56,111 bases of DNA from Myxococcota bacterium. GTDB taxonomy: Bacteria > Myxococcota_A > UBA9160 > UBA6930. The notes beneath the pieces were generated by a model. That model saw nothing but the letters and a program-made list of their open reading frames with translations. It did no database searches and was not told where the DNA came from. Where the stretch lies: the NCBI GenBank assembly GCA_041605395.1, contig JBFIYM010000003.1, positions 1-56,111 of the forward strand. The letters run 5' to 3'. Below are positions 11,521 through 55,868 of this stretch, in pieces (position 1 is the first letter of the stretch; each line of letters begins with the position of its first letter). A program made the position numbers and the translations under genes.

Positions 11521-12665
11521 CCGCAGCCGACCGGGGGCAGCAGCAGCTCGAAGCGGGCGCCCCCGCCGAGCGACTTGCCGACCCGGATGCTCCCGCCGAG
11601 CTCTTCGACGATCTTCTGGACCACGGCCAGCCCGAGACCGATGCCGCGCGCCTTGCCGAAGGTCACGAAGGCGTCGAACAGCTGGTCTGCAATCTCGGGC
11701 GGGATGCCGGGGCCCGTGTCGCTCACCGCGAGAAGGGCGCTGCCGTCGGCGAGACGGGTCTCGATGCGCAGCACACCGCCCTCGGGCATGACGTCGAGCG
11801 CGTTGTCCACGAGATTGAGCAGCACGCGGCGGAGCCGTGCCTCGTCGAGCGATACGATCGCGCGGGACTCGAGATCGACCTCGAGCGCCACGCCGTAGCG
11901 AGAGGCACGCGCCGAAACACCGACCAGCGCAGCGTCCACGACGTCGTCGAGCGGTTCCGGGCGGCAACCTGCCTGCCCCTGGCTTACATGGGAGACCTCG
12001 AGAAGCTCACTGCACATGTGCTGGAGACGGTCTACCTCGTCGACCACCGTGCGACCCAACTCGACGAGAGAATCGTTCCCGGCGTCGCTGACGATCTCGG
12101 AACCCGCGCTGCGAATCGTCGTGAGGGGGCTGCGTAGGTCGTGCACGATCATGGCGATCATGCGTCCGATCGCCGCGAGGCGTTCCGAGGCGATGGTGCG
12201 CGCCTGCGAGTCGCGGAGCGCCGTCAGGGTCTCCTCGAGCTCCCGGTTCTTCGCGGTGACCAGCGTCAGCAGGCTGGCGTTCTCGCGCGCCAGGCGGACG
12301 CGCTGGAGGACGCCCGTCACCGCGGCCTGCAGGTCGGCCGGCAGACAGGGCTTGTGGAGGTATGCGTGAACGCGGCCCAGGTTGATGGCATCCACGCTCG
12401 CCTGGAGGTCCGTGTATCCGGTGAGCAGGATGCGCCCTACGGTGCCGTCGTGTTCGGCCACCATGCGAAGGAGCTCGATGCCGCTCATGCCGGGCATGCG
12501 CTGGTCGGAGATGACGAGATCGACGCCACCCCCCTGCACGAGCGCGAGCGCCTCCTCCCCGCGTTCCGCGTAGGACACGCGGGCCACGCGCCGCAGGGAG
12601 CGGACGATCAGCTCGAGGGCGCGGGGCTCGTCGTCGACCGCAACGATGTGGGGCAACGCGCTCAT
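11517..12665 (-). CDS. Hybrid receiver-histidine kinase
   Basis: REC motifs VDDE, VISDQRMP, LHKP. H-box VHDLRSPL, N-box NLVDNA, DTGPG, GIGLGL. Confidence 0.92.
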   Translation of the reverse strand: MSALPHIVAVDDEPRALELIVRSLRRVARVSYAERGEEALALVQGGGVDLVISDQRMPGMSGIELLRMVAEHDGTVGRILLTGYTDLQASVDAINLGRVHAYLHKPCLPADLQAAVTGVLQRVRLARENASLLTLVTAKNRELEETLTALRDSQARTIASERLAAIGRMIAMIVHDLRSPLTTIRSAGSEIVSDAGNDSLVELGRTVVDEVDRLQHMCSELLEVSHVSQGQAGCRPEPLDDVVDAALVGVSARASRYGVALEVDLESRAIVSLDEARLRRVLLNLVDNALDVMPEGGVLRIETRLADGSALLAVSDTGPGIPPEIADQLFDAFVTFGKARGIGLGLAVVQKIVEELGGSIRVGKSLGGGARFELLLPPVGCG

Positions 12666-15145
12666 CCGGCTGGTCTATCGGCCGGCGCACTGCCGGCTTG
12701 AGGCGCATCCTCCGGGAGGCGGATGGGCAGATCGAGGATGAAGCAGGTGCCGCGCCCCGGCCCGCTGCGCACGCCGAGCGTGCCGCCGTGGCGCGTCACG
12801 ATTCCGTAGCTGAGGGCCAGGCCGAGGCCGGTCCCCTTTCCCACCTCCTTGGTCGTGAAGAAGGGCTCGAAGATCCGGCCGCGCGCCTCCGGGGGAATGC
12901 CCGGCCCGTCGTCCTCCACCTCCACGATCACACGGTCGGGGCCATTGCACGCGGTCCGCACGCGGATCGTGCCCCGCTCGCCCAGGGCGTCTGCCGCGTT
13001 CGCGAGGAGGTTCATGAAGACCTGGTCGAGCTGGCCCTCGATGCACTCGACGGTCGGCGTCTCGCCGTACTCGCGCTCCACCTCGATGCCGATCAAGCGA
13101 CCCTGGAGGAGGTTCAGGGTCGCTTCGAGCGAGGTGCGCAGGTCGATCTCGGAACGGCGACCGCCGTCGGCGCGCGAGAACGAGCGGAGGTCGCGGACGA
13201 TGGTGGCCGTGCGCTCGACGCCCTCCGCGCATGCGGCCAGCAGGCTCGGGAGGTCCTCGACGGCCCAGTCGAGGTCGAGCCGTGCCCGCGCTTCGGCCAG
13301 ACGCTCGGTGAGCGCGGGGGCGTACTCGCCAGCGATCTTCTCGTACTCGACGATCGCCGTGCACAGGGAGTCGACGTGCTGGCGCAGGAACTGCAGGTTT
13401 CCCTCGACGAAGTGCAGCGGGTTGTTGATCTCGTGAGCCACGCCGGCGACGAGCTGGCCTAGCGACGCCATCTTCTCCTGGTGCGCCATCTGCCGCTGCG
13501 TGTCGCGCAGGGCAGTGAGGGTCGCCGCGAGCTCTGCCGTGCGCTCCTGGACCTTGCCCTCGAGCGTCTCGTTGAGCTCACGCAGCTGCTCGAGCGCGAG
13601 TGCCTTGGCCAACGCGAGGGCGCCCTGGCTGGCCAGGTTGCGTAGCAGCCGACGCTCCTCGGCGCCGTAGCGACGCCCCGAGAGCCGCCGGCCGAGTGTG
13701 AGCCGCGCGAGGGCGCGACCGTCGAGGGCGAAGGGCACCCGCAGGCCGCCGGCCGGCAGGTCCTCCAGGCGCTCGTCGTCCGCTGCGCTCGGCTCGTGGC
13801 CCGGTGCGACGTCGAGGTGCAGGGTCTCGGGCTGCAGCGCCTCACGCACCGCGTCCTCGATCACGGCGCGGATGCCGTCGAGGTCGGTCACCCGCGCGAG
13901 TCGCTGCAGAGCCTCCTCGAGCAGGCGACGGAAGTCGACGCTGGTACGGAAGAAGAGGCGGTCGACGCTCGACTGGAAGCGGTCACGCAGCGGCAGCAGG
14001 GCGGCAACCGCAAGCCCCGAGAGCAGCACCGCCGGTGCACGTCGCGAGATGCCGAGGGTCTCCTGCAGGAGGAGGTCCGTCAGGCTGACGGCGCCCGCGA
14101 ACGCGGCCGCCGTGAGGGCCGAAACCAGTATGTAGCTGGTCAGGCGCCGCAGCCCCGCGTCCACGCCGAGCAGATCCTCTCGCAGCACGGCGTAGGCGAT
14201 CGCCACCGGGAACAGGATGGCCGTCCAGCCCGCGAGGTTCTCGGGCACACTGCCGCCAGTCATGGCAGAGGCGAGCGCGAGCAGAATCGGCCCGAGCAGC
14301 GCGAGAAATGCGCCTGCCGCCAGGACCTTCACGCGCTGGCGCGACTCGAAGTCGATCGGCCGCAGATGGGCCCAGACCTGCAAAGCCACCAGTACGGGGA
14401 GCGCCGAGCCGAAGGCGCCGATGGCTACCCGGTGGCTCGTCACGTAGTGCGACGGGTCGTACAACCCGAGCTGCATGAGGACGCCGAACCCGGCGCTGAC
14501 CGCGTACGGCAGCGCGAGCAAACGCGGTCTGGCGACGAGCCAGGCGCGTCGGAAGGGGAACACGGCCGCGAAGTGCAGCACCGCAGCGAACAGCAGGCAC
14601 TCCAAGAAGGCGTGCAACCGAAACAATCGGTAGGGCCCGTAGAGATCCACCGCGGTGAGTGCGTACAGACCGACGATGTAGAGCGGCACCGCGCTGCTTC
14701 GAGCCGGACCCCGGCCGAGGAATCGGATGGCGAGTGCAGCCGCCACCAGCGAGAGCCCGCTCGCAAAGTAGGAGCCGAACAGGAGCAGGTAGTCGAGCCC
14801 CGAGAAACGGCGCGTCGCGATGGGGTGTGACGAGTTCTGGTCGCCGCTTCGCAGCTCGTAACGCACCTCGCTCCCGACCGGAAGGCGCCGGACGTGATGG
14901 GCGAGGTCACGGGCGTCGGCGAGCGGACGACCCTCCACCGCGACCACCTCGCGCTGGTAGATGCTGCTGTCCGCCACGGCCGGCCAGTGCGCCAGACCCG
15001 CGGAAGCCACCACGCGGTTGCCGAGTAGCAGGAAGCCCGGGAAGGGGCGCCCCACCCAGCCGCTCGACTCGGTCAACACGAGGAGCGTGATCGCGAGCGC
15101 GAAGAAGGCCGCGATCCAGGAAACGATGTCCCGCTGGCGTCGCAC
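12662..15145 (-). CDS. Membrane sensor histidine kinase (PDZ-like extracellular domain, multi-TM, GAF-like, HisKA/HATPase)
   Basis: H-box VAHEINNPL, NLLANA, DDGPG, FFTTKEVGKGTGLGL. The N-terminal half has about 9 hydrophobic segments. The start is uncertain (GTG 15145 chosen). Confidence 0.88.
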   Translation of the reverse strand: MRRQRDIVSWIAAFFALAITLLVLTESSGWVGRPFPGFLLLGNRVVASAGLAHWPAVADSSIYQREVVAVEGRPLADARDLAHHVRRLPVGSEVRYELRSGDQNSSHPIATRRFSGLDYLLLFGSYFASGLSLVAAALAIRFLGRGPARSSAVPLYIVGLYALTAVDLYGPYRLFRLHAFLECLLFAAVLHFAAVFPFRRAWLVARPRLLALPYAVSAGFGVLMQLGLYDPSHYVTSHRVAIGAFGSALPVLVALQVWAHLRPIDFESRQRVKVLAAGAFLALLGPILLALASAMTGGSVPENLAGWTAILFPVAIAYAVLREDLLGVDAGLRRLTSYILVSALTAAAFAGAVSLTDLLLQETLGISRRAPAVLLSGLAVAALLPLRDRFQSSVDRLFFRTSVDFRRLLEEALQRLARVTDLDGIRAVIEDAVREALQPETLHLDVAPGHEPSAADDERLEDLPAGGLRVPFALDGRALARLTLGRRLSGRRYGAEERRLLRNLASQGALALAKALALEQLRELNETLEGKVQERTAELAATLTALRDTQRQMAHQEKMASLGQLVAGVAHEINNPLHFVEGNLQFLRQHVDSLCTAIVEYEKIAGEYAPALTERLAEARARLDLDWAVEDLPSLLAACAEGVERTATIVRDLRSFSRADGGRRSEIDLRTSLEATLNLLQGRLIGIEVEREYGETPTVECIEGQLDQVFMNLLANAADALGERGTIRVRTACNGPDRVIVEVEDDGPGIPPEARGRIFEPFFTTKEVGKGTGLGLALSYGIVTRHGGTLGVRSGPGRGTCFILDLPIRLPEDAPQAGSAPADRPAG

Positions 15146-15204
15146 GAGGTCTCTTCGGAGCGGCCGCTGCCCGGCTAAAGAGGGCGCGCCGCGGCTCCGA
15201 TGGG

Positions 15205-16788
15205 TTGCCGGTTCCGAGGAGGGGCCGCGTGGCCCGCGTGCTCGCCGTCGTGCTCTCAGCCGCCCTCTACGGCCTGAGCTTCCCCCCGTTCGGCCTCGTT
15301 GGGCTTGCCTGGGTCGCCCTGGTGCCGCTGCTCTGGGCCCTCCGGGGCGCCTCGCTTCCGGCTGCGCTCGGGCTCGGCTACGCCTGGGGCGCGCTCGCGA
15401 CGCTGCTGGTGATCGCGTGGGTCGTGCCGACCCTCCAGGGTCACTTCCAGGCACCGCTCGGTTGGAGCCTCGCGTTCTGGCTCGGCCTCGGGGCCACGAC
15501 GGCGGCGCCCTACGCGGCGATCGCACTCGCTGGCTTCGTCGTGGCCGCCCGGCGCGTCTCGCTCGCTCTGCGCCCCGTGTTGTTCGTAGCCGCGTGGGTG
15601 AGCTTCGAGTACGCGCGAAGCGAGCTGCTGCTGCGGTCGCCCTGGGCTTCGCTCGCGCAGGTGCAGGCGGGTACCCCCTGGGTGCTCCAGGTCGCGGCCC
15701 TGACCGGCGCGTATGGCGTGAGTGCGCTGCTGGCATGGACGAACGCCGTGGTCGCCGAGCTTCTCGGGCAGCTTCGGGACACGTCGGCCCGGCGCGAGGC
15801 CGGAGCCCGGTTGGCGCCGCTCTGCCTCCCGCTCCTGCTGGTGCTGGGCGCCCTCCTCGTGTCGGAACGCCCGGCGCGGCCGGAGGGGGGCCTACGTGTC
15901 GCGCTCGTGCAGGGCAACGTCGAGCCCGAGCTGCGCTGGCGGCGCAGTGCAGCCGGCCGCGTGCTGAGACGCTACGTCGGGCTCACCCGTGACCTGCTGC
16001 GCGAAGCCAGCCAGGCGCAGCCGGACCTGATCGTGTGGCCCGAGAACGCGGTACAGACCAGCGTCGATGATCCGACCTACGGCCCTCCGCTGCGCGCGCT
16101 GGCTCGTCACGGCGTTCCGCTCCTCCTCGGCGCGCCCCGGAGCGAGCGTTGGAACGCGGAGCGCCTCCACTTCAACAGCGCCTTCCTGCTGCGCCCCGAC
16201 GGGACCCACGAGCACTACGACAAGCGGCGCCTGCTTCCCTTCAGCGAGACCCGCCCGCTCGGCCGCTGGGCCGGCATCGACACGCCGGGCGATGCCGACG
16301 CTTCCGAGTACACGGCCGGAGCCCGTCCCGGCCTCTTCGACGTCGCGGGTGAGCGCGTCGGCGTGCTCATCTGCGTGGAGGCGCTCGATGCCCGGTTGGC
16401 ACGCGAGCTCGCCGCAGCCGGTGCGACGCTGCTCGTCAACCTCTCGAACGAGAGCTGGTTCGGCGGGCGCGGCGGTGCGGAGCAACATCTCCAGCAGGCG
16501 GCGCTCCGGGCCGTGGAGACCGGCCTCCCCGTGGTTCGCGCAACGACCACGGGCGTCACGGCGGTGATCGCACCGGACGGGCGCGTCGTGGCCTCACTGC
16601 CTGCCGATCGGTCCGCCGTCCTGGATGCGCGTGTTCCGGCGCCACGTTCGGGCGGGACCTTCTACCGCCGCCACGGGGACCTCTTCGCGGCGCTCTGCAT
16701 TGCGGTCTGGCTCGGCGCACTCGCCCCCAGCGTCCGCTCCGAGCTCCAGCGAGGAGCGGTCAGCAGGTCCCCACGCGCGGCCGCATAG
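15205..16788 (+). CDS. lnt: Apolipoprotein N-acyltransferase (Lnt) paralog 1
   Basis: N-terminal TM bundle, VQGNV, and a nitrilase triad E (WPENA), K (YDKRRLLPFSE), C (ICVEA). Also LVNLSNESWF, LRAVE, and C-terminal TFY.RHGD. Confidence 0.88.
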   Translation: MPVPRRGRVARVLAVVLSAALYGLSFPPFGLVGLAWVALVPLLWALRGASLPAALGLGYAWGALATLLVIAWVVPTLQGHFQAPLGWSLAFWLGLGATTAAPYAAIALAGFVVAARRVSLALRPVLFVAAWVSFEYARSELLLRSPWASLAQVQAGTPWVLQVAALTGAYGVSALLAWTNAVVAELLGQLRDTSARREAGARLAPLCLPLLLVLGALLVSERPARPEGGLRVALVQGNVEPELRWRRSAAGRVLRRYVGLTRDLLREASQAQPDLIVWPENAVQTSVDDPTYGPPLRALARHGVPLLLGAPRSERWNAERLHFNSAFLLRPDGTHEHYDKRRLLPFSETRPLGRWAGIDTPGDADASEYTAGARPGLFDVAGERVGVLICVEALDARLARELAAAGATLLVNLSNESWFGGRGGAEQHLQQAALRAVETGLPVVRATTTGVTAVIAPDGRVVASLPADRSAVLDARVPAPRSGGTFYRRHGDLFAALCIAVWLGALAPSVRSELQRGAVSRSPRAAA

Positions 16789-17747
16789 GCGACGGAGGCG
16801 GGAAAGATCCAGGCCGTGAGAGCCAACGCGTTCGCCGGCGAGCTTCCCCCCGTCAACAGCTCGGCGAGCGTCAACGAGATCGGTAGGCCGAAGGCGAGCG
16901 CGGCGCCCAGTGCAAGCGTGCGGAGCCTCGCGCGAACGTCGACCGAGAGCGAGGTGCGGAACCGCTCGAGCTCGGAGATCACGAGAACGAGCAGAGAGGC
17001 GCCGAACGCGCTCACCGCGACCAGATGCGAGCCGGTGTAGGCGCTCGCTACGTCCAGGCGGGCCACCGTGAACCCGCCCAGCCCGAGCCCGGCCGCGTAG
17101 AGCGACAGCGGCAGCCAGGGGAATCGGTCGAGCAGGCGCGCCCGCTGCGGGAAGCCGAGTGCCATGTGGAGCGCGGCGGGGCCGAGCAGGGCTTCGCACA
17201 TGGCGTGCACCCCGAAGAGACGATAGGGGCCGTAGAGGTCGAGCGCGCTCAAGGTCCAGAGCGACCCGATCAGGAGCGCGGGGGCCGCGCACGCCGCGGT
17301 GGGATTGCGCCGACGCGCACCGAGCGCCACCAGCCCCGCGGCGCCGAGCGCAATCCCGTTCACCGCGTACATGCCGTAGAGCAGCATGAAGTCGCGGACT
17401 CCGAACCGGCGCGTCTCGATGACGCGTCGCTCCGAACGTTCTCCGCGTCGGAGCTCGTAGGCGACGGGCGTCGCCACCGGCAGGCGGCTCACGAGCGCGC
17501 GCACGTCGACCGCGGACGTGACGGCACGACCGTCGGCGGACACGACCCGGTGCTGGAAGATCTCACCCCCCGCCGTGCCCGGCCAGATCGAGAGACCGAC
17601 GGAGGCGACGACACCGTTCTCGAGGAGCAGGAAGCCCGGAAACGGCCGCTCCAGCTGCGAGACGGCGCCGAGCCCACCGGTGATTCCGACCGCGACGATC
17701 AGCGCCGCTGCCACGGCGAAGAGACGATCTTGGAAGAGGCGTTTCAT
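16662..17747 (-). CDS. Stand-alone receptor-like membrane protein (paralog of the kinase sensor region, no output domain)
   Basis: Shares RPFPGFLLL, DLYGPYRLF, LH...FP and FP...AYA with the 12662-15145 kinase, but ends just after the last TM helix. Confidence 0.8.
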   Translation of the reverse strand: MKRLFQDRLFAVAAALIVAVGITGGLGAVSQLERPFPGFLLLENGVVASVGLSIWPGTAGGEIFQHRVVSADGRAVTSAVDVRALVSRLPVATPVAYELRRGERSERRVIETRRFGVRDFMLLYGMYAVNGIALGAAGLVALGARRRNPTAACAAPALLIGSLWTLSALDLYGPYRLFGVHAMCEALLGPAALHMALGFPQRARLLDRFPWLPLSLYAAGLGLGGFTVARLDVASAYTGSHLVAVSAFGASLLVLVISELERFRTSLSVDVRARLRTLALGAALAFGLPISLTLAELLTGGSSPANALALTAWIFPASVAYAAARGDLLTAPRWSSERTLGASAPSQTAMQSAAKRSPWRR

Positions 17748-17778: not shown

Positions 17779-18837
17779 CTAGTCGAGCGAGATCAGCGTG
17801 CGGGCGGGCTTGTTCTGGACCCCGAGGAAGCGGGCGACGGCATCCATCACCTCGTCCATGAAGACCCCGGGCTCGAGCGGTCCCGCTGCGGGCGTCACGG
17901 TGATCACCAGGTCCATCTTCGCGGCCCCGGGCGCCAGGGGGACCCCTTCCGTGTCGTCCGCATTCCGACGCTGGAGCGCGTTGATCGCCAGCACCAGACG
18001 GTGGTGGTCGATGTGCAGGCTGCCGTCCGGGTGTCGGCCGTCCGTATCGACCGCGTGCGAACCCCCGGCATCGTGCGCGGCGGTATAGGAGTGGAACTCG
18101 TGGCGCCAATACGAGAGGACGTCGCTCGACCGGTCGCTCTTGAGCCGGTTGACCTTGTGTTCGAAGACGTCCCCGTGGAGGTCCTTGTCCCCTTCGACGC
18201 GCCAGCCGAAGTAGCTGCCCCACTGGCGCTCCGTCGCGTCGTCGGCGCTCATCGTGAAGAGTGTGAGGTCGACACCATCTGCGTTGTAGATCACGACGTC
18301 CTCGACGCCGAACGCGAGTGGACGATCGACGGCGATGAAGGAGAGCTGCATCGCATCCCGGATGTCCGTGACGTCGAGCGGGAGCAGCAGCGTCCCGTCG
18401 GCCGCAACCGCCGACTCGTGCCGCGAGATCCCGAACTCGCCCCCGCCGGGCGGCAGACGCGGCGCGGGAGGCAGCGCCGTGAAGAGCGCGTCGCCATACG
18501 TGCGGAGATAGCCGTTCCCGGAGACCTTGATCGACTTGGGTCCGGGAGCGCTGCCGAGGGCTGCAGGGACCTTCACGCTCAGATAGCCGGCGTCACCCGC
18601 AACCACGTCCACCAACGCGGCCGTACCGAACTCGACGCGATAGCTGGCGCCGACCTGGAAGTCGGCGCCGTCTGCGTGGACGCGGATGTTCGAGCCCGGC
18701 GAGGCGAAGGACGGTGAGATCAGCGTCCACGGCGGGGCGGGATGATCACATCCGCAACCAGCTCGAGCGGGCGCGATCGCGGCGAAGCTGGTCGCGAAGA
18801 CCAGGAAGAGCAGACCAACTCGGACCGTTCCCGACAT
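17779..18837 (-). CDS. Secreted protein with N-terminal GCGCDH motif
   Basis: GGAGGT RBS. Signal peptide MSGTVRVGLLFLVFATSFAAIAPARA followed by GCGCDHPAPP. His-rich later segments (YWRHEFHSY, HIDHH). Confidence 0.8.
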   Translation of the reverse strand: MSGTVRVGLLFLVFATSFAAIAPARAGCGCDHPAPPWTLISPSFASPGSNIRVHADGADFQVGASYRVEFGTAALVDVVAGDAGYLSVKVPAALGSAPGPKSIKVSGNGYLRTYGDALFTALPPAPRLPPGGGEFGISRHESAVAADGTLLLPLDVTDIRDAMQLSFIAVDRPLAFGVEDVVIYNADGVDLTLFTMSADDATERQWGSYFGWRVEGDKDLHGDVFEHKVNRLKSDRSSDVLSYWRHEFHSYTAAHDAGGSHAVDTDGRHPDGSLHIDHHRLVLAINALQRRNADDTEGVPLAPGAAKMDLVITVTPAAGPLEPGVFMDEVMDAVARFLGVQNKPARTLISLD

Positions 18838-18866: not shown

Positions 18867-18882
18867 AGCAAGCTCCGTGCCA
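18867..18882 (-). promoter_or_regulatory. Sigma-54 (-24/-12) promoter
   Basis: Minus strand reads TGGCACGGAGCTTGCT, an exact match to TGGCACG-N4-TTGCW, 30 bp upstream of the 18837 ATG. Confidence 0.88.
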
Positions 18883-33817: not shown

Positions 33818-33911
33818 TCGGGCGCCGGGGGCCGGAGCATAGCCTGCGGTCCGATGCGCCGACCGCGGGCCGGCGAGCAGAGCCGCGGCGGATCCGCTAC
33901 TCCCGGCCCGC

Positions 33912-35141: not shown

Positions 35142-35155
35142 GCGGCACGCGCCGG

Positions 35156-47675: not shown

Positions 47676-47695
47676 TTAATGGTACTGCTGAGGCC

Positions 47696-48310
47696 GTGGC
47701 CGAGACCGCCCCCACCCCCAATCGCTTCGAGCGCCGGCGCCTCGAGACCCGCGCTGCCCTCCTCGATGCCGCCATCGCGCTATTCCAGCAGCGGGGCGTG
47801 CGCGCCACCAAGCTCGAGGAGATCTGCGAGCACGCCGACGTCTCGGCGCGCACCTTCTTCAACCACTTCGAGACGCGCGAGCACCTCTACCGGGCGATCG
47901 CCTGGCAGCGCGCCGAGCAGATGGCGGCGCTGATCGAGGCGCGCGGCGCGGAGCGGGCGCCGTTCGACGCGAAGCTGCTCGGCCTGTTCGACGCAATCGG
48001 GGCCTACCTCGCGGAGCGGCCGGCCTGGCGCGAGATGGTCGGCGAGATGCTCTCGCTCCGTCTCGAGGGCGAGGCCGACGCGCAGCGCAAGCTCGGCCAG
48101 GCGCTGCTCGGCTTCGTCACGGCGGGCGTCGCGAGCGGCGAGGTCGCCGCGCGCCACCGCCCCGACGTGCTGGCCGACCTCGTGCTCGGCGGCCTCACCA
48201 CCGCGCTCCGGCGCTGGTGCGACGACCCGGGCTACGACCTCGAAGCCGGACTCGGACGAGCCGCAGAGGCGCTGCTCGATCTGCTTTCCCCTCGGAGGAA
48301 CTTCGCATGA
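47696..48310 (+). CDS. TetR/AcrR-family regulator
   Basis: RRRLETRAALLDAAIALF..RG...T.LEEICEHADVSARTFFNHF. Confidence 0.93.
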   Translation: MAETAPTPNRFERRRLETRAALLDAAIALFQQRGVRATKLEEICEHADVSARTFFNHFETREHLYRAIAWQRAEQMAALIEARGAERAPFDAKLLGLFDAIGAYLAERPAWREMVGEMLSLRLEGEADAQRKLGQALLGFVTAGVASGEVAARHRPDVLADLVLGGLTTALRRWCDDPGYDLEAGLGRAAEALLDLLSPRRNFA

Positions 48311-49722
48311 CGACGAAGAGCGTCGAGACCTTCATGAGCGACCCGATCGGCTACTTCGACGGCTCGATCACGAAGATGCACACGATCCCGCAGCCCGAGC
48401 TCGAGGCCATCCAGCGCGACGCCATGCGGCGGCGCTTCGCCGCGCACCGCGAGAGCATCGAGATGCTCCGCAACCTCGCCGACCGGCTCGACGTGAAGGA
48501 GGTGCGCGAGTTCGACGACGTCGCGCCGCTCTTCTTCCCCCACACGGCGTACAAGTCCTACCCGGCGGCGCTGCTCGACAAGAAGCGCTTCGACCTGATG
48601 ACGAAGTGGCTCCAGAAGCTCACGCCAGAGGACCTCTCGGGCATCGACTGCAGCGGCTGCGACTCGATCGAGGAGTGGATCGACCGGCTCGACGCGGGCT
48701 CGGCGCTGCGCGTGATCACCTCGTCGGGCACGACGGGGACGATCTCGATCATCCCGAAGGACAAGGAGGGCGGCTACTACGGCATGCGGCTCTGGCGGCT
48801 CTTCCTGTTCCAGCGCTTCGGCGAGCCGCCGCCCGACGAGGCGCCGACCGTCGACGTGATCTGGCCCAACTACGCGGACGGCAAGCTGGGCCACCTGCGC
48901 ATGGTGGGGCTGCTCAAGCGCGAGTTCACCGGCGACGACGAGAGCCGCTTCCACGCGCTCTACAACCAGGCCGTGAACACCGACCTGCTGTTCCTCGCGA
49001 GCAAGCTCCGCGCCGCGGCCTCGCGCGGGGAGCTCGACCGCGTGAAGATCGACCCGAAGCTGCTGGCGCGCAAGGACGAGTTCATGGCGATGGAGGCCCG
49101 CCGCCCCCAGGAGATGCAGGCCTTCTTCGAGCGCATGACGTCGGAGCTCCGGGGAAAGCGCGTCTTCATGACCGGCACCTACGCGCTCATGTACGAGATC
49201 GCGAAGGCGGGGCTCGAGCGTGGGGTGAAGGACGTGTTCGCGAAGGACTCGGCGATCCTGACCGGCGGCGGCACCAAGGGCTTCGTGCTGCCCGAGAACT
49301 ACATGGACGTGATCAAGGAGTTCCTGGGCGTCGACCGCATCCAGGAGGGCTACGGCATGTCCGAGATCAGCGCCTTCCACTGGGCCTGCGACGAGGGCCA
49401 CTACCACGTGCAGCCCTGGGTGATCCCCTACGTGCTCGACCCCGAGACGAGCGAGCCGCTCCCGCGCGAGGGCGTCCAGACCGGGCGCGCCGCGTTCTAC
49501 GACCTGCTGCTCGAGAGCCACTGGGGGGGCAGCATCTCGGGCGACGAGATCACGCTCGACTTCTCGACCCCGTGCCGCTGCGGCCTCGCGAGCGTGCACA
49601 TCCACCACGACATCATGCGCTACAGCGAGAAGCAGGGCGTCGAGGACGACCGCATCACCTGCAACGCCACCCAGGAGGTGCACGACGAGGCCGTGAACTT
49701 CCTGAAGGACGTCGAGGCGTGA
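48307..49722 (+). CDS. LuxE-like acyl-protein synthetase (ANL adenylating enzyme)
   Basis: TSSGTTG, LTGGGTKG, YGMSE, SGDEI, CRCG, and a C-terminal Cys (DDRITC). Coupled to the luxC-like gene. Confidence 0.75.
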   Translation: MTTKSVETFMSDPIGYFDGSITKMHTIPQPELEAIQRDAMRRRFAAHRESIEMLRNLADRLDVKEVREFDDVAPLFFPHTAYKSYPAALLDKKRFDLMTKWLQKLTPEDLSGIDCSGCDSIEEWIDRLDAGSALRVITSSGTTGTISIIPKDKEGGYYGMRLWRLFLFQRFGEPPPDEAPTVDVIWPNYADGKLGHLRMVGLLKREFTGDDESRFHALYNQAVNTDLLFLASKLRAAASRGELDRVKIDPKLLARKDEFMAMEARRPQEMQAFFERMTSELRGKRVFMTGTYALMYEIAKAGLERGVKDVFAKDSAILTGGGTKGFVLPENYMDVIKEFLGVDRIQEGYGMSEISAFHWACDEGHYHVQPWVIPYVLDPETSEPLPREGVQTGRAAFYDLLLESHWGGSISGDEITLDFSTPCRCGLASVHIHHDIMRYSEKQGVEDDRITCNATQEVHDEAVNFLKDVEA

Positions 49723-51185
49723 GCGCCGCGGCGTTCCGTGTCCCGCTCTTCCTGCGCGGCGAGGTGGTGGAGGAGGACTGGAAGACGTTCGGGGGCCGCT
49801 ACGGCGGCGCCAGCTTCGAGGCCCCGGACCTGGCCCGCCACGTCGAGCGGCTGCCGCTGGCCAACCCGGTGGCGCTGGCCGACCTCTACGAGATCTCGTT
49901 CGACGAGATCCTCGACGTGCTGGCGGAGCTCGGCCGCGCGCTCGACTTCGAGAAGAACCGCCACGTCCAGGCCGCGTACCAGGCGGCGCTCGTCGCGGCG
50001 CCGTACCCCGCCTCGATGCTCAAGGTGAGCTACACGACCCTGCCGGCGGCCTTCGACCGCGAGGCGATCCGCGAGCTCGCGGACTCGCGCGTCGGCATCG
50101 ACCATCTCGAGGGCTGGGTGCCGCGGCGGCTCCGCGACGGCCGCGAGATCCGCGTTCGCGCCTTCGGCGCGCGCGCCCTCCACATCCCGGCCGGCAACGG
50201 CGGCATCGTCTCGGCCATCACGATCATCCGCAACGCCATCACGCGGAGCGACGCGATCGTGAAGGCGCCCTCGAACGACCCGCTGACCGCGCTCGCCATC
50301 GCGCGCACGCTGGCGGACGTGGCCCCGAACCATCCGCTCACGAAGCACCTCGCGGTGGCCTACTGGAAGGGTGGCGACACGGCCGTCGAGGAGAAGCTCT
50401 TCCGGCCCGAGCACGTCGAGAAGATCGTGGCGTGGGGCGGCTTCGCCTCCGTGAAGCACGTCACGCGCTACATCCAGCCCGGCCTCGAGCTGATCGCGCT
50501 GGACCCGAAGCGGAGCGCGAGCATCATCGGGCCCGAGGCGTTCGAGAGCGACGAGACCCTCGACGAGGTGGCCCAGCGCGCCGCCTGCGACGTCGGCATG
50601 GCAAACCAGGAGGGCTGCGCCTGCGCGCGCGTGATCTACGTCCTGTGCGGGAGCGACGCCCAGGGCATCGAGCGCGCCAACCGGCTCGGCGAGCGCATCT
50701 ACCAGAAGCTGCTGGCGCTCCCCGACCACATCAGCACGAAGCCGCGCAGCTTCGACCGCGAACTCAAGGACCACCTCGAGGCGTCGCGCATGGCCGGCGA
50801 CGACTGGTACCGCGTGATCGGCGGCGAGCAGAACGAGGGTGCCGTGATCGTCTCGCAGATGGACGAGGCCGTGGACTACGCGCCGCTCCTCTCGGGGCGC
50901 GTCGCCAACGTGGTGCCCGTCGACGACGTCAAGAAGGTGACGGACGCGGTGAACGCCTACACCCAGACCGTCGGCATCTACCCCGAGCGCCTGAAGCGCG
51001 AGCTCCGCGACCAGCTCCCGCTCTACGGCGCGCAGCGCCTCACCTCCCTCGGCTACGCCTGCCACGTGAACCCGGCCATGCCCCAGGACGCGATCGAGCC
51101 GGTGCGCCGCATGTGCAAGTGGATCGTCGACGAGGAGTGCGACCCGGCACGGGTTCCGCCCGCGTGGAGGTCGGGAGCGCGGTAG
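49719..51185 (+). CDS. LuxC-like acyl-CoA reductase
   Basis: HIPAGN, IVKAPSNDP, AYWKGGD, IVAWGG, DPKRS, catalytic NQEGCACAR, QTVGIYP, GAQR. Confidence 0.85.
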   Translation: MSAAAFRVPLFLRGEVVEEDWKTFGGRYGGASFEAPDLARHVERLPLANPVALADLYEISFDEILDVLAELGRALDFEKNRHVQAAYQAALVAAPYPASMLKVSYTTLPAAFDREAIRELADSRVGIDHLEGWVPRRLRDGREIRVRAFGARALHIPAGNGGIVSAITIIRNAITRSDAIVKAPSNDPLTALAIARTLADVAPNHPLTKHLAVAYWKGGDTAVEEKLFRPEHVEKIVAWGGFASVKHVTRYIQPGLELIALDPKRSASIIGPEAFESDETLDEVAQRAACDVGMANQEGCACARVIYVLCGSDAQGIERANRLGERIYQKLLALPDHISTKPRSFDRELKDHLEASRMAGDDWYRVIGGEQNEGAVIVSQMDEAVDYAPLLSGRVANVVPVDDVKKVTDAVNAYTQTVGIYPERLKRELRDQLPLYGAQRLTSLGYACHVNPAMPQDAIEPVRRMCKWIVDEECDPARVPPAWRSGAR

Positions 51186-51194
51186 CATCGCGCG

Positions 51195-52700
51195 ATGAGG
51201 ACGCCGAGTGCGCTCCACCCGGTGGTGCGCGGCCTGGCAGTGGCGGGGGTGTCGGCGGGCCTGTGGGCCGCGAGCTTCCCGCCCCTCGGCGTGTGGGCCC
51301 TCGGCTGGTTCGCCCTGGTCCCCCTCTTCTGCCGCCTCGTACTCCTGTCCCCGGGCCGGGCGGCCGGGCTGGCTGCCGCGTGGGCGGCGCTGGCGACGCT
51401 CGGGGTGGCGTGGTGGTTCCCGGCGACGGTGGCCGGCTTCTTCGGCGCGGGAGCCGGCTCGGGGCTCGCCGGCCTCGCCGTGTTGGCGGGGCTCGACGCT
51501 GCCCTCTACGCGCCGTTCGGCGCGTGGCTCGGCGCCTGTGGGCGCCGCGGGCGGGCGAGTCCCCTCGCCGTCGGCGCGGCGTTCACCCTCGCGGAGTTCG
51601 TGCGCTCGCGCTTCTGGATCGCGAACCCCTTCGCGCTGGCGGCGGCCGCACAGACCGAGGGGCCGTGGCTCCAGCTCGTGGACCTGGTCGGCGCCTTCGG
51701 GCTCGGGTGGCTCGTGGTCACGACCAACGCCGTGGTGGCGGGCTTCTGGTCGCCGGCCTTCCGCGGAAGCGCGCCGTGGCGCAGACGCACCGCAACGGTG
51801 GTGTGTCTTCTCGCGGGCCTCGGGTACGGGCTCGTGAAGGCCGCGGCACCCGCGGTCGGCTCTTCGGCGCGGGTCGGGGTGGTCCAGACCCTGCCCCCGA
51901 GCCACGCTCCCAGCCAGGGTCCGTCGCGGCTCGAGCGCCAGCTCGCGCTCAGCCGGGAGGCCCTCGACCACGGGGCGGAGCTGGTGCTGTGGCCGGAGTA
52001 CGCGGTCGACTTCTATCTCCGGGAAGCCGGCCCGGAGCGCGATCGGCTGCTGGCACTCACGGCGGAGACGCCCCTCGAGCTTGCGGTCGGCGCGCCACAC
52101 TACCGGGTCGGGGACGGCGGCGGGCTCCGCTACACGACGAGCGTCTTCCTGCTGCGCGACGGGCAGGTGGTCGGGCGCTCGGACAAGACCCACCTGGTGC
52201 CGTTCGCCGAGTCGGCGCCCCTCGGCCTCGCCCTTGCCGCGCCGGGAGCGCGGTACAGCCCAGGAGAGGGCGCCCGTGTGCTGGAAGCCCGCGAGGTGGC
52301 CCTCGGGAGCCTGATCTGCTCGGAGGCCTTCTTCTCGGACGTGGCGCGCCGGCTGGTGCGCGGGGGCGCCGAGCTGCTCTCGAACCCCTCCAACGACGCC
52401 TGGTACGGCAACGCGGCCGGCGCGGCCCACCAGCTCCAGGCTGCCATCCTGCGGGCGGTGGAGAACGGCCGTCCGCTGGTGCGACCCGCGGCTGCGGGGG
52501 CCTCGGTGCACATCGACAGCCGGGGACGCGTGCGAGATCTCCTGCCGGGCCGGGACGAGGGCGTGGCTGTGGTGCACTTCACGCGGCCCACTGGCCACAC
52601 GGTCTACAATCGGCTGGGAGACGGGGCCGTCTGGCTCGCCGCGTTCGTGGCGGCGGCCCCTTGGTTCCCCACAGCGCTGCTTCGTAGGAGATCCCGATGA
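51195..52700 (+). CDS. lnt: Apolipoprotein N-acyltransferase (Lnt) paralog 2
   Basis: SFPP...W..LVP, triad WPEYA / DKTHLVPFAE / ICSEA, SNDAWYG, LRAVENGR, TVY.RLGD. Confidence 0.88.
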   Translation: MRTPSALHPVVRGLAVAGVSAGLWAASFPPLGVWALGWFALVPLFCRLVLLSPGRAAGLAAAWAALATLGVAWWFPATVAGFFGAGAGSGLAGLAVLAGLDAALYAPFGAWLGACGRRGRASPLAVGAAFTLAEFVRSRFWIANPFALAAAAQTEGPWLQLVDLVGAFGLGWLVVTTNAVVAGFWSPAFRGSAPWRRRTATVVCLLAGLGYGLVKAAAPAVGSSARVGVVQTLPPSHAPSQGPSRLERQLALSREALDHGAELVLWPEYAVDFYLREAGPERDRLLALTAETPLELAVGAPHYRVGDGGGLRYTTSVFLLRDGQVVGRSDKTHLVPFAESAPLGLALAAPGARYSPGEGARVLEAREVALGSLICSEAFFSDVARRLVRGGAELLSNPSNDAWYGNAAGAAHQLQAAILRAVENGRPLVRPAAAGASVHIDSRGRVRDLLPGRDEGVAVVHFTRPTGHTVYNRLGDGAVWLAAFVAAAPWFPTALLRRRSR

Positions 52701-53494
52701 ACACCCGTTCCCCCCGCCCCTGGCTCCCCCTGGTCGCTTCCCTGCTTCTGGCGGCCCCGGCCTGGTCCGGTTCGCCCGGCCCGAATGCCCGCCTCAACCT
52801 GCTTCCCCTCGGCACCTGCCAGGCCGAGCCCGAGCAGCACTGCCTGGACCACTTCGACTGCGAGAACGCGATGGGCGGTCCGGGGCGGTGCTCGACCTCC
52901 CTCGCCCGGGAGCGCATTCGCGGCGTGCTGACGGTGATCGGAGACAAGGACTCCTCGCTTGCCGGCCCGCCGATACCTCTCACCGAGGATGCCGCCGGCA
53001 ACGTCGTGCCGGAGGACTTCTCGGGCACCACGCTCACCCTGATGCTCGAGTTCATGCACCGGGGGGAGCGCGTGGTGATCGCCGAGAGCTTCCGGGACCT
53101 GGGACCGTTCGTGAGCCCGGAGCTCAACATCGACTGCGCCGGCTTCTGCTTCCCGACCTGGCGCGAGCCCGCCGTGGAGACGCGCGTGGCCCAGGAGCCC
53201 AGCGACGACGACACCTCCGGCGCGGGCGGCGGTGGTGGCGACGGCGGCGGCGCTGGGGGCGGCGGTGGCGGTGGCCAGCAGGCCGGCAGCCAGGGTATCC
53301 GCATCCTCTGGGCCACGCTTCCGCCGGCCGCGGAGGCGGAGCTGGTGCGCATCCTCGAGCTCCCGGAGGGCGCGGTGCCGTTCGTCGAGATGGTGGACGA
53401 AAAGGACATCTTCGACCACGCGGCCGAGGACGACCTGCTCGCGTCGGTGCACCGGCTCAAGGTGGTGATCCGCGCCATCCTGCCCGAGGGCTGA
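52697..53494 (+). CDS. Secreted Cys-containing protein with Gly-rich loop
   Basis: Signal peptide, C-x7-C-x5-C-x9-C, a second Cys pair CAGFC, and a poly-Gly tract. ATG overlaps the lnt stop. Confidence 0.78.
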   Translation: MNTRSPRPWLPLVASLLLAAPAWSGSPGPNARLNLLPLGTCQAEPEQHCLDHFDCENAMGGPGRCSTSLARERIRGVLTVIGDKDSSLAGPPIPLTEDAAGNVVPEDFSGTTLTLMLEFMHRGERVVIAESFRDLGPFVSPELNIDCAGFCFPTWREPAVETRVAQEPSDDDTSGAGGGGGDGGGAGGGGGGGQQAGSQGIRILWATLPPAAEAELVRILELPEGAVPFVEMVDEKDIFDHAAEDDLLASVHRLKVVIRAILPEG

Positions 53495-53507
53495 GCCCGG
53501 GGGAGGG

Positions 53508-55868
53508 ATGCGCCGACTCGGAGCACGCGACGCAGCCCTGCTCTGGACCCTGCTGGGCGTGTGGGCGGTCTGCTTCACGCTGCACGTGAACGCACTCGCC
53601 ACGGGGCGCCTGGCGTGGCTCCCGCTCCAGGTGGCCGGAGCCGACGGTCCGGACGACTACCCGGTCGTGAGCGGCTTCTGGAGCGGAGCCGAGGCGGAGG
53701 CGAGCTCGCTGCGCCCCGGCGATCGCCTGGTCTCCGTCGGAGAGGCGCCGCTCCGAGGCGCGGGCCCGCTCGGGTTCGCGGCCCGCGCCTACCAGGCGCT
53801 CGGGGACACGGGACCCGCGCCGCGACTTCGCTTCGAGCGGGCGGGCGAGCGAGGCGAGGCGGCGCTGCCCCTCGTCCCGGTGCGATGGCCGGGGCGCGTG
53901 ACCTTCCTCTCGCTGGTGTTCGTGGCGGCCGGCGCCGTCGCCTTCGTGCGCTCGCGGGGCATGCGCGCGGCGGGGCTGCTCTTTGTCTCGATGTGGGGCT
54001 ACGCGCTCCACTGGACCTACTTCTTCGGCTCACCGCCCGCGCTGACGCCGCTGGCCGTGGCCGTCTTCGCCCTGGGGGTGTCCGTGGCCCTGGTCTGCGC
54101 GTGCTGGGCCCTCCTGGAGTTTCCACCCGAGACGGCGCGTCGCGGGGCGTGGCGTTGGCTCCCGCTGGTCTTCGCTCCGGTGGGTCCGGCGGCGTCGTCT
54201 TGGGCGTTCGACTGGCCGTTGTCCTCGTCGCTCGGCTGGTCCCTGAACCTCGGCGGCTCGATCGCCTTCCTGCTCGTGATGGCGCTGCTCCTGCTCTCGA
54301 ACTTCCGGCGGGCCAGCGGCGACGGGCGCCGCCAGATCAAGTGGGTGGTGCTCGGGGTGCAGGTCGGCGTGGTGCCGCCGCTCCTCGCGGGCGTCGCCAC
54401 CCTGGCGCGCCCGGAACTGTGGTGGCTCTGGGAGCTCAGCCTGTTCTCGCTCGCCGCGATTCCGCTGGGCGCCGCGGTGGCGTTGGCCCACGACCGCCTG
54501 TTCGACGTGGACGGACTCCTCACCCGCGCCAGCAGCCTCTCCCTGCTCTCGCTGGGCCTGGTGGCGCTCCTGATCTTCGTGATCCCCCGCCTCGGCGCGG
54601 CCCTGGATGAGGTGGTGGACCCGACGGTGGCCCAGATGGGGCTCTCGGTGCTCGCGGCCGGGGCGCTCTTCGGCCTGCGCTCCTGGCTCGAGCCGACGCT
54701 GGGTCGGGCGCTCTTCGCGGAACGGCGTCGGCTCGAGACGGAGTCGCAGCGCCTGCGCGATTCCTTCGACCGCTGCGAGAAGCCCCGAGAGCTGCTGACC
54801 CGTCTGGGCGAGGGGCTTCGGGAGCTGCTCGCCCCGAGCTGCACCGTGGTCTACTCCCCGAGCGGGACGGTGTTGGCCCCGCTCTACGCCGACGGACCGG
54901 CGGTGGCGCCGGGGTTCGAGCTGGAGGGGGCCTTCGCGCGCGGGCTCGAGCGTCTCGCGGGCCCGGTCTCGCGCCACGAGCTCGGTCGGCTGCCGACCTG
55001 GCAGCCCTCGGAGACCGAGGTGGCCGCGCTCGACGCCATGGGGGTGGACCTGGTACTGCCCCTGGTGCTGGACGGTCGCCTCGAGGCGCTGGTGTGCCTG
55101 GGCGAGAAGCGCTCCGGCGACCTCTACTCGCAGACGGACCGGGCGCTCCTCGCGGGGGTGGTGGATCGCGCCTGTCAGGAGCTACGGCACTTCGAGCGGG
55201 AGCGGACCCTCGAGACGGAGCGCGCGCGCAGCGAACGCCTCGAGCGCTTCGTACCCGGGGCGGTGCGCGAGCGCATCGACGGCGGCGAGGCGCTCGACGC
55301 GCGCCCGCGCCAGGTGACGGTGCTCTTCGTGGACATTCGCGGCTACACGGCCTTCTCCGAACAGCACCGGCCCGACGAGATCTTCTCCCTCGTCAACCGC
55401 TACACCGCGGCGGTGAGCGCCCGGATCCGGGCGCACGGCGGCGCCGTGGTGGACTTCAGCGGCGACGGCCTGATGGCCGTCTTCGGCGCGCCGGAGGCGC
55501 ACGCGGAGAAGGAGCGGGCCGCCGTGCGCGCGGCCCGCGCCATCGTGGCCGAGGTCCGCGAGCTCCTGGCCGAGGGGCGTGGCGAGGAGCCCTTCGCGCG
55601 CGACGTGGGCGTCGGGATCGCGAGCGGCGAGGGCTACACCGGCACCATCCGCTCGGTGGAACGCGACATCTGGTGCGTGCTCGGCAACACCACCAACCTG
55701 GCCGCTCGGCTCCAGGCCCTGAGCCGAGAGCTCGAAGCCTCGGTGGTGATCGACGAGGCGACCGCGCAGGCGTGCGCGGGTGAGCTCGCCGGCTTCGAGC
55801 GCGTGGGGCTGCGCCAGGTGCGCGGCCGCAATGTGCCGGTGCTGCTCTACGCCCTGCCGCTCGCCTGA
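53508..55868 (+). CDS. Receptor nucleotidyl cyclase (PDZ-like, multi-TM, GAF-like, class III cyclase)
   Basis: LRPGDRLVSVG (PDZ-like), about 9 TM segments, LGEKRSGDLYS..D..LL, LFVDIRGYT, GDGLMAVFG, NLAARL. Confidence 0.88.
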   Translation: MRRLGARDAALLWTLLGVWAVCFTLHVNALATGRLAWLPLQVAGADGPDDYPVVSGFWSGAEAEASSLRPGDRLVSVGEAPLRGAGPLGFAARAYQALGDTGPAPRLRFERAGERGEAALPLVPVRWPGRVTFLSLVFVAAGAVAFVRSRGMRAAGLLFVSMWGYALHWTYFFGSPPALTPLAVAVFALGVSVALVCACWALLEFPPETARRGAWRWLPLVFAPVGPAASSWAFDWPLSSSLGWSLNLGGSIAFLLVMALLLLSNFRRASGDGRRQIKWVVLGVQVGVVPPLLAGVATLARPELWWLWELSLFSLAAIPLGAAVALAHDRLFDVDGLLTRASSLSLLSLGLVALLIFVIPRLGAALDEVVDPTVAQMGLSVLAAGALFGLRSWLEPTLGRALFAERRRLETESQRLRDSFDRCEKPRELLTRLGEGLRELLAPSCTVVYSPSGTVLAPLYADGPAVAPGFELEGAFARGLERLAGPVSRHELGRLPTWQPSETEVAALDAMGVDLVLPLVLDGRLEALVCLGEKRSGDLYSQTDRALLAGVVDRACQELRHFERERTLETERARSERLERFVPGAVRERIDGGEALDARPRQVTVLFVDIRGYTAFSEQHRPDEIFSLVNRYTAAVSARIRAHGGAVVDFSGDGLMAVFGAPEAHAEKERAAVRAARAIVAEVRELLAEGRGEEPFARDVGVGIASGEGYTGTIRSVERDIWCVLGNTTNLAARLQALSRELEASVVIDEATAQACAGELAGFERVGLRQVRGRNVPVLLYALPLA

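Follow-up and report, generated by a model that had tools for sequence, protein, structure and literature searches.

The acyltransferase Lnt is generally regarded as a housekeeping enzyme that is essential and has a single purpose, and it counts as a drug target. To our knowledge there is one exception, AatD, which serves the secretion of a virulence coat protein. In a stretch of 56,111 nucleotides (nt) from a Myxococcota bacterium (assembly GCA_041605395.1, contig JBFIYM010000003.1, positions 1 to 56,111; referred to below as the window), two lnt paralogs, lnt1 and lnt2, were found, each in a set with genes for an exported protein and for a membrane receptor ending in a histidine kinase or a nucleotidyl cyclase. 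The parts are of known kinds (Lnt, 7-helix receptor, PDZ, GAF, kinase or cyclase), and what is new is their pairing. In this uncultured lineage, the conserved presence of extra Lnt copies beside receptors of a family not described before and beside module-specific secreted proteins suggests that protein lipidation has been built into a bacterial signalling system.

AatD is a Lnt homolog encoded in the AatPABCD set of enteric E. coli. According to PMC7943197, it acylates CexE/Aap at the alpha-amine of the invariant N-terminal Gly once signal peptidase I has cut at an A-x-A site, and in the view of its authors an added N-terminal Gly suffices for acylation by AatD; further precedent for this chemistry is given in PMC7478709 and in the review PMC8689077. 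The present loci resemble Aat (PMC7943197, PMC8689077) in that an extra Lnt enzyme with the Glu-Lys-Cys (E-K-C) triad is encoded with its own, here putative, substrate. The AatD substrate, like the exported protein Sec1 of the first set, combines a signal peptidase I A-x-A site with a conserved mature N-terminus, the Gly being present in 98/98 motif-bearing Sec1 homologs. The likeness is mixed for the other modules, with G first in 5/7 Sec2 sequences and no clear equivalent in the a2- and c-type modules. Unlike Aat, the operons described here were free of ABC, adaptor and TolC-like secretion genes on gene maps in which some of the neighbours were Pfam-scanned, the partner gene encodes a receptor kinase or cyclase, and the partners measure 224-454 amino acids as against coat proteins of ~10-12 kDa. 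The presumed purpose would also differ, being signalling and not surface display, with acylation predicted here by analogy.

Housekeeping Lnt (TIGR00546; for E. coli, 5n6h and 6nwr) shares the two-domain architecture and the catalytic triad with the window paralogs, which differ from it in lying outside its clade and its phoH..lnt..prfB context, in having the Tyr beside the catalytic Cys replaced, and in that the genome keeps a separate housekeeping copy. As for the receptors, 7TMR-DISM proteins likewise combine a bacterial 7-helix module with an extracytoplasmic domain and interchangeable outputs. The module found here (PDZ-7TM) differs from them in an additional N-terminal transmembrane (TM) helix, in a PDZ-like domain in place of DISMED, and in a GAF domain invariably placed behind the membrane module.

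DegS and RseP of the sigma-E pathway are PDZ-based envelope sensors. By analogy, an inner-membrane-anchored periplasmic PDZ domain could read the ends of envelope proteins; the receptors described here differ from DegS/RseP in having no protease domain and in signalling by kinase or cyclase instead of proteolysis, and their PDZ fold matches were weak. In Hedgehog/Hhat and Wnt/Porcupine signalling, a dedicated membrane acyltransferase lipidates a secreted protein, which is then read by a multi-pass receptor. The likeness to these is one of analogy only and not of homology, with MBOAT enzymes on one side and the nitrilase-fold Lnt on the other, and the bacterial counterpart is a putative one. 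In the literature covered by our search (subscription journals were outside its coverage), neither a paper linking a Lnt paralog to a receptor kinase or cyclase nor a description of a PDZ-7TM-GAF receptor was found.

Two lnt-receptor sets in the window and their counterparts in other genomes

The window has a G+C content of ~72%, and reading frames were therefore set by a frame plot of the G+C content at codon positions (GC3). An initial annotation of the window had described a set of Lnt, secreted protein and receptor occurring twice, and this was confirmed by frame plot, open reading frame (ORF) lists and Pfam and NCBIfam scans, with all genes in place. The genes of the two sets, termed copy 1 (first four lines) and copy 2 (last three lines), are:

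12662-15145, minus strand: receptor histidine kinase (HK) of subfamily a1, 827 amino acids (frame plot, Pfam, 130 homologs)
15205-16788, plus strand: lnt1, Lnt paralog of clade a1 (LNT_N E 8e-26, CN_hydrolase E 7e-27, TIGR00546 258 bits)
16662-17747, minus strand: receptor-only protein, 361 amino acids, with first TM helix (TM1), PDZ-like domain and seven-TM bundle (7TM) and no cytoplasmic output (44% identity to the HK N-terminus)
17779-18837, minus strand: Sec1, exported protein (homologs, N-terminal motif, invariant columns, model, phyletic pattern)
51195-52700, plus strand: lnt2, Lnt paralog of clade b (Pfam, TIGR00546 219 bits, alignment to 6nwr, tree)
52697-53494, plus strand: Sec2, exported protein (4-nt overlap with lnt2)
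53508-55868, plus strand: receptor cyclase of subfamily b, 786 amino acids (Guanylate_cyc E 3e-16, GAF_2 E 0.005; 13-nt gap after Sec2)

The gene order differs between the copies. In copy 1, lnt1 is divergent from the HK gene and convergent with the receptor-only gene and sec1, and copy 2 is a co-directional operon.

With a receptor profile made from six receptor modules (A1), 301 genomes from across the phylum were searched, and the receptor module was detected in 59. It is near-universal in the order and class of the window (families f1, 9/9; f3, 8/9; f4, 6/6; f5, 15/18; f9, 8/10) and rare elsewhere, and the named database matches to the receptor and to Sec1 were Myxococcota metagenome-assembled genomes. 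LNT_N matches were present in 267/301 genomes, and 142 of them fell in the 58 genomes of the class, corresponding to 2.4 per genome. Because the best five receptor candidates per genome were scored and 150 of the 488 Lnt matches were listed, the linkage counts given in the following are lower bounds.

Around 128 receptor matches, DNA was fetched as 117 regions comprising 1.75 Mb, in which a local search gave 127 receptor ORFs; gene maps of the loci were made with a GC3-based caller. The fetched DNA contained 21 Lnt ORFs as against ~0.9 expected at uniform density. A Lnt ORF lay at a distance of at most 1.3 kb from 19/127 receptor ORFs, and three further receptor ORFs had one within 5 kb. An enrichment of lnt near such receptors in other genomes had been named beforehand as the check to be made, and its absence, the outcome that would have counted against the idea, did not come true.

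Three arrangements were recognised: in type a (eight loci), kinase and lnt are divergent and 45-120 nt apart; in type b (six loci), lnt is followed by a gene for ~250 amino acids and then by the receptor; in type c (four loci), lnt overlaps or abuts the receptor, with a 4-nt overlap in three cases and 16 nt in one. Each of the three matches one copy in the genome of the window, and one further linked case fits none of them. The output follows the type, as in the other genomes the a-type receptors were kinases in 8/8 and the b- and c-type receptors class III cyclases in 10/10 cases. The same arrangements in other genomes speak for a recurrence beyond chance, and the observation as a whole is stronger than first stated.

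The linked receptors form clades that mirror those of the Lnts (b, 7/7; a2, 5/5; c, four plus the receptor of locus L090), and the linked Lnts constitute separate old clades spanning families f1, f4, f5, f6, f8 and f9. The matching clades show the pairing to be old and subfamily-specific, and not one of chance neighbours. We conclude that the lnt-receptor linkage is conserved in at least six families of the class.

The source assembly (4.13 Mb, 235 contigs, 89% complete) contains five LNT_N matches, of which one is the housekeeping copy, three abut PDZ-7TM receptors, and one heads an operon of lnt, secreted protein and cyclase. The lnt on contig C15, located between phoH and prfB, was assigned as the housekeeping copy since the same phoH..lnt..prfB context recurs for 29 Lnts in related genomes. 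On contig C204, the contig end truncates a lnt gene, after which a TM1-PDZ-7TM-GAF-cyclase receptor is encoded on the same strand; the lnt stop overlaps the receptor ATG (ATGA). On contig C158 (5208-10566; L007), lnt is followed with a 4-nt overlap by the gene of a 243-amino-acid exported protein and then by that of a cyclase-AAA-TPR protein. All four non-housekeeping Lnts of the genome hence sit with signalling proteins, three of them with the same receptor superfamily.

Two side observations concern the C158 locus. A cyclic-nucleotide-binding sigma-54 activator is encoded upstream, divergent from lnt, and homologs of the cyclase-AAA-TPR protein adjoin Lnt paralogs in loci L159 and L161.

Lnt paralogs, receptors and exported partners

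The products of lnt1 and lnt2 share 34% identity (BLASTP, E 7e-39), and in both the polytopic N-terminal domain LNT_N (PF20154) and the periplasmic, nitrilase-fold domain CN_hydrolase (PF00795) scored above cut-off; for the NCBIfam lnt equivalog TIGR00546 the scores were 258 and 219 bits, respectively, at a cut-off of 132.9. The E-K-C triad, which the initial annotation had reported for both, is kept in 63/63 aligned Lnts, the window copies included. In Lnt2 it corresponds to E268-K331-C375 (own numbering), and alignment of Lnt2 with residues 24-485 of E. coli Lnt (E 3.5e-21) places it on the WPE, K and C positions of 6nwr. The residue following the catalytic Cys is Tyr in 28/29 housekeeping Lnts. 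Types b and c have S, A or G instead, and type a shows a mixture; of the window copies, Lnt1 (clade a1) has V and Lnt2 (clade b) has S. This altered residue beside the catalytic Cys hints at a different acceptor. A change from Tyr to a small residue was considered as a trait in common with AatD and rejected, since AatD keeps the Tyr (ICYE).

A tree of 63 Lnts was calculated by a quick IQ-TREE run; of four partial rows, L147, L148 and L164 were dropped and the partial Lnt of C204 was kept. The housekeeping Lnts, defined by their phoH..lnt..prfB context, formed one clade (29/29, SH-aLRT 99) from which both window paralogs are excluded. Together with the housekeeping lnt on another contig, this bears out the earlier proposal that Lnt1 and Lnt2 are dedicated paralogs and not the housekeeping enzyme, for which a tree including the housekeeping Lnt had been suggested; placement inside the housekeeping clade, the outcome named as refuting, did not occur. 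The a-type Lnts formed two clades of four and five rows (support 100 each). The b-type Lnts (seven rows, support 83) fell, along with 4/5 c-type Lnts, inside a clade of 15 rows (support 98). The incomplete C204 Lnt neighbours the housekeeping clade; its branch is long and its position unsure.

In the HK, TM1, the PDZ-like domain, 7TM and a GAF-like segment precede HisKA and HATPase_c, and in the receptor cyclase TM1, a periplasmic domain, 7TM and GAF precede a class III nucleotidyl cyclase domain (PF00211). The receptor-only protein is 44% identical to the N-terminal 330 residues of the HK (E 4e-62). By BLASTP, the HK and the cyclase receptor showed no significant match (best E 0.15), and their homology therefore rests on profiles: those of the HK family (122 members) and of the cyclase family (nine members) were aligned by hhalign with a probability of 97.5% and E 6e-12 over 270 columns, which cover the periplasmic domain and the helix bundle. 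The shared layout of the two full-length receptors and their FP, R and VD motifs, as noted initially, were thereby substantiated.

An AF2 model of the receptor-only protein, calculated from a 53-row alignment (pLDDT 89.9, pTM 0.87), has a single helix at the N-terminus, then a small beta domain and a further seven helices. With the entire module, Foldseek returned no match at E <= 1e-3, and the weak matches were generic 7-helix proteins. The beta domain superposed on the PDZ domains of HtrA, DegS, DegP and MucD at 2.4-4 Å over ~90-100 residues, the matches being weak (Foldseek E 0.02-0.06). Among the receptors scanned, that of C204 alone gave PDZ scores in Pfam (PDZ_6, E 2.3e-5 and 24.5 bits, below the cut-off of 27; PDZ_2, E 6e-4). 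On the grounds of the model, the weak fold matches and these near-cut-off scores, the module is provisionally named TM1, PDZ-like, 7TM. The GAF domain behind it scored weakly in the window (GAF_2), and GAF families were precomputed for many homologs. In four receptor modules, 7TMR-DISM_7TM (PF07695) gave no match even at E 10.

The outputs of receptor homologs comprise HK, GGDEF, GGDEF-EAL and cyclase. In a FastTree tree of 123 modules, for which rows covering fewer than 300 model positions had been dropped beforehand, the a1 clade (14 rows) consisted of four linked kinases, four receptor-only proteins and six unlinked kinases; the receptor-only orthologs (334-358 amino acids) formed a clade with support 100. 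A clade of 54 rows, present in most genomes, was never linked to Lnt. In most genomes of the order its members form a tandem pair, never beside Lnt, and two PDZ-7TM receptor genes in tandem on contig C14 (~32387-36300, minus strand) of the source genome belong to it. Two loci stand apart by their gene content. In L024 (G073:C55), the cyclase domain of a b-type receptor is followed by a Ser/Thr protein kinase domain (Pkinase E 1e-36), and in L090 (G027:C74) tandem lnt paralogs (3440-4972 and 5619-7181) lie beside a c-clade receptor cyclase and a 285-amino-acid exported protein.

For Sec1, at least 125 homologs were retrieved, none of them named, and 120 were listed. In 98 of the 120, GCGCDH follows straight after an A-x-A site; 14 others have GCGC, then D, A or E, then K, and eight are N-terminally incomplete. 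At the end of the signal peptide, the 98 homologs have A at -1 in 97 and at -3 in 87 cases, with -2 being variable. In the window, A-x-A is followed by mature GCGCDHP. As the A-x-A site fits signal peptidase I, mature Sec1 would start with Gly-Cys-Gly-Cys. An assignment of Sec1 as a classical lipoprotein was considered and not taken as first choice, because the residue at -3 to the first Cys is polar or charged in most homologs (mainly Q, R, T or W) and is L in 4/98. Sec1 further has a conserved His cluster, and five His are invariant. Its model consists of two beta-sandwich domains, with which Foldseek returned generic Ig-like matches (TM <= 0.22).

Sec1 occurs in 4/301 genomes, and these are the four that have an a1 lnt beside a kinase and a receptor-only gene. 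The order is kinase, sec1, receptor-only and REC in two of them, and in one sec1 and the receptor-only gene are on a separate contig.

Sec2 had 21 representatives among 1.84 billion proteins. It was found in 7/301 genomes, each time between lnt and receptor; the search model was built from those seven sequences, and the informative point is that no further copy was found. In the window, mature Sec2 begins with G-S-P-G-P, after which come four conserved Cys, and the mature end conforms to x-x-P-[G/D] in 7/7. The same secreted protein in both copies was considered and rejected, as Sec1 and Sec2 are not homologous.

Pfam and NCBIfam scans gave no family for the membrane modules, the receptor-only protein, Sec1 or Sec2. 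Judged by these scans, the PDZ-7TM module, Sec1 and Sec2 are three new families for which there is no existing family model.

Near the a2-type pairs, other proteins are encoded. In L017, L033, L037 and L047, the a2-type kinase-lnt pair is flanked by a conserved trio of genes, for a NtrC-like regulator, a ~170-amino-acid protein and an exported protein of 500-790 amino acids; the latter share an '...IVPGAP...' motif. This trio may represent the secreted partners of that subfamily.

Candidate mechanism and rival explanations

We propose, tentatively and at a little less than an even chance, that the window holds two and the genome four members of a family of envelope signalling modules that has three parts, is conserved in one Myxococcota class and is based on acylation. 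The parts are a non-housekeeping Lnt paralog that is catalytically intact by its residues; a module-specific, Sec-exported protein with a conserved mature N-terminus; and a receptor that starts with a TM helix and continues with the periplasmic PDZ-like domain and the 7-TM bundle, with GAF in the cytoplasm and an output domain. After cleavage of the partner by signal peptidase I, the Lnt paralog would move a phospholipid acyl chain onto the free alpha-amine, as AatD does on CexE/Aap, whereby the inner membrane would hold the partner at its outer face. So placed, the partner could act as a ligand or co-sensor for the PDZ/7TM receptor, whose output in copy 2 would be a cyclic nucleotide. The parts and their conservation, the pairing of subfamilies, the intact triad, the conserved N-termini and the promoter are shown by the present data; acylation, its acceptor and the direction of information flow are predictions. 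An AatD-like reaction fits with the conserved N-termini of the partners, with partners exclusive to their Lnt, with the intact triad and with the altered residue beside the Cys. The conserved mature N-termini, taken with the AatD precedent (PMC7943197), make acylation more plausible.

Whether only the lipidated, membrane-tethered partner is read by the PDZ-7TM-GAF receptor is a separate matter. Such lipidation-dependent ligand presentation, which would be a new signalling logic, is possible and somewhat less likely than not. Of the interpretation given in the initial annotation, the dedicated paralogs and the conserved linkage to receptors have stood, and the label quorum-sensing-like has been dropped, as the partners are periplasmic proteins of 25-38 kDa and not diffusible autoinducers.

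Several observations weigh against an acylation-based module. In five fully scored genomes, 8/28 LNT_N matches abut a receptor and 4/28 are housekeeping by context, so that the link is frequent and not universal. There is no Lnt near 97/123 receptors in the tree, including 6/10 a1-clade kinases; with most receptors of the superfamily having no nearby Lnt, the receptor fold does not need it. In type a, lnt is transcribed divergently and is not co-transcribed with the receptor. The Sec1 pattern rests on about three lineages, kin not being independent; the first mature residue of Sec2 is G in five, S in one and F in one of seven sequences; and the secreted proteins near a2- and c-type pairs have no common N-terminal motif. 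AatD (L166:8237-9451) gave no BLASTP match among the 63 Lnts at E 1e-3 and, as stated, keeps its Tyr, so that no shared signature ties the paralogs to the one proven glycine acyltransferase.

The main rival explanation takes the Lnt paralog as a co-sensor subunit of the receptor that reports membrane lipid or apolipoprotein status via its acyl-enzyme state or substrate occupancy, with the secreted proteins being separate, non-acylated accessory ligands. We regard this as unlikely, while giving it serious weight. It would account for the 5/5 c-type pairs in which lnt and receptor overlap or are translationally coupled, as is usual where subunits are produced in a fixed ratio, and it agrees with the mirrored clades, with the a2- and c-type pairs that have no secreted partner of conserved N-terminus, and with Lnt paralogs abutting cyclase-AAA-TPR proteins, which are soluble and carry no membrane sensor themselves (C158 of the source genome, L159, L161). 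What it leaves unexplained is the restriction of Sec1 and Sec2 to loci of the matching Lnt and the invariance of their mature N-termini; moreover, a pure sensor would not need the whole triad, yet 63/63 Lnts keep it. A complex prediction for Lnt2 with the N-terminal module of the cyclase receptor (alignments A3 and A4) returned a score of 0.00 and speaks neither for nor against binding. Alternatively, the paralogs could be the targets or effectors of their neighbours, performing ordinary N-acylation of dedicated or condition-specific lipoproteins next to their own regulators. Sec1 would be such a substrate if the first Cys of the A-G-C that closes its signal peptide served as lipobox Cys; the residues at -3 to this Cys (Q, R, T, W etc., with L in 4/98) and the A-x-A before the Gly, which fits signal peptidase I, speak against it, and Sec2 has no Cys at its cleavage site. 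Both window paralogs do exceed the lnt equivalog cut-off, and a divergent shared promoter region, of 59-150 nt in type a, is common for regulator-target pairs. Histidine kinases and cyclases, however, do not bind DNA and are thus not neighbours in the regulator-operator sense, and in types b and c the receptor operon itself begins with lnt. We consider this explanation improbable.

Still less probable, in our estimation, is a small lipid signal: the Lnt paralog would produce, for example, a lysophospholipid by-product or an N-acyl amine for the 7TM bundle to read, with the secreted proteins being carriers or unrelated. The weak Foldseek matches of the bundle (all E > 1e-3) include lipid-binding G-protein-coupled receptors, but they are generic 7-helix matches, and the packing of lnt2 behind LuxC and LuxE-like genes of fatty-acyl metabolism has no parallel beside lnt at any other locus fetched. 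Nor would a lipid signal explain the exclusive co-occurrence with Sec1 and Sec2. There might, lastly, be no functional coupling at all and the association be due to chance or hitch-hiking in signalling-rich genomes, given the wealth of kinases and cyclases in Myxococcota and the absence of a link for most receptors and for many Lnt paralogs. This is contradicted by the 21 Lnt ORFs found against 0.9 expected, by the recurrence of three arrangements across six families, by the 4-nt lnt-receptor overlaps and by the matching clades in both trees, and we hold it to be hardly credible.

The proposed acylation-based module derives its interest from Lnt paralog clades that are paired, subfamily by subfamily, with receptors absent from Pfam and with secreted proteins existing nowhere else. 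If true, protein N-acylation would for the first time have been found hard-wired into signal input in a prokaryote, and alpha-amine or glycine acylation by Lnt paralogs, so far confined to AatD, would be old and diversified outside the enterics. If the paralogs lipidate their partners, bacteria would make a receptor ligand or co-receptor by acylation, the partners would constitute a new class of non-lipobox lipoproteins that current predictors miss, and a defined three-gene system, rebuildable in E. coli, would be at hand for studying the gating of 7TM and PDZ sensors. Even under another mechanism, three new families and a circuit of HK, sigma-54 activator and sigma-54 promoter of sec1 are now testable.

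Proposed regulation of copy 1, and neighbouring genes

Next to the genes of copy 1, the following features were identified:

10189-11520, minus strand: sigma-54 activator (enhancer-binding protein, EBP) of the NtrC family (Pfam Sigma54_activat E 8e-70, HTH_8)
11517-12665, minus strand: hybrid response regulator/histidine kinase, REC-HisKA-HATPase (Pfam Response_reg, HisKA, HATPase_c)
18867-18882, minus strand: sigma-54 type -24/-12 promoter TGGCACGGAGCTTGCT, 29 nt upstream of the sec1 ATG

The EBP is the final gene of the HK operon and has a 4-nt overlap with the gene upstream, the REC-HK hybrid, which in turn overlaps the receptor HK by 4 nt; an ortholog of the hybrid also follows the HK in L009. 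The exact TGGCAC-N5-TTGCT upstream of sec1 is the sole exact sigma-54 match in the window, where 0.01 would be expected, and sites with one mismatch were found upstream of sec1 in L016, L020 and L011, so that 4/4 Sec1 genomes have such a site. All parts of a NtrBC-like pathway are thus present, namely a kinase with HisKA and HATPase_c, the REC-HK hybrid, the EBP and a -24/-12 promoter. From these parts, the simplest circuit would be a feedback loop, in which the receptor HK acts via the REC-HK hybrid and the EBP on the sigma-54 promoter of sec1 and of the output-less receptor.

The start of the HK was set at GTG 15145, with homologs measuring 820-850 amino acids. A longer ORF extending to 15736 was rejected, since its first 590 nt are non-coding and overlap lnt1, whose frame carries the coding signal. 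The divergent gap between lnt1 and the HK gene is 59 nt, or 83 nt if lnt1 starts at GTG 15229, which is preceded by GGAGG. At their 3' ends, lnt1 and the receptor-only gene converge with a 127-nt overlap (16662-16788). This overlap may be a read-through extension, since the receptor-only protein is ~27 amino acids longer than its 334-amino-acid orthologs and the tail is of low model confidence.

Upstream of copy 2, a further set of genes is encoded:

46644-47621, plus strand: luciferase-like monooxygenase, upstream of the TetR/LuxE-like/LuxC set
47696-51185, plus strand: TetR regulator, LuxE-like/AMP-binding protein (weak, E 4e-4) and LuxC acyl-CoA reductase (E 2e-39), assigned by Pfam

The TetR, LuxE-like and LuxC genes are tightly packed ahead of lnt2, with 4-nt overlaps and then a 9-nt gap. 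Together with the luciferase-like gene they form a fatty-acyl reductase set that may be co-transcribed with the lnt2 module in this genome only. No LuxC or LuxE homologs adjoined lnt in the other fetched loci, and for this reason LuxC/LuxE was treated as local and not as a part of the module.

Further upstream, a LuxR-type response regulator (41597-42247, plus strand) and a kinase (42310-44127, minus strand) form a separate two-component pair. The kinase gave a sub-threshold match to 7TMR-DISM_7TM (E 3e-6), which points to a member of the classical 7TMR family in the same window, distinct from the PDZ-7TM module.

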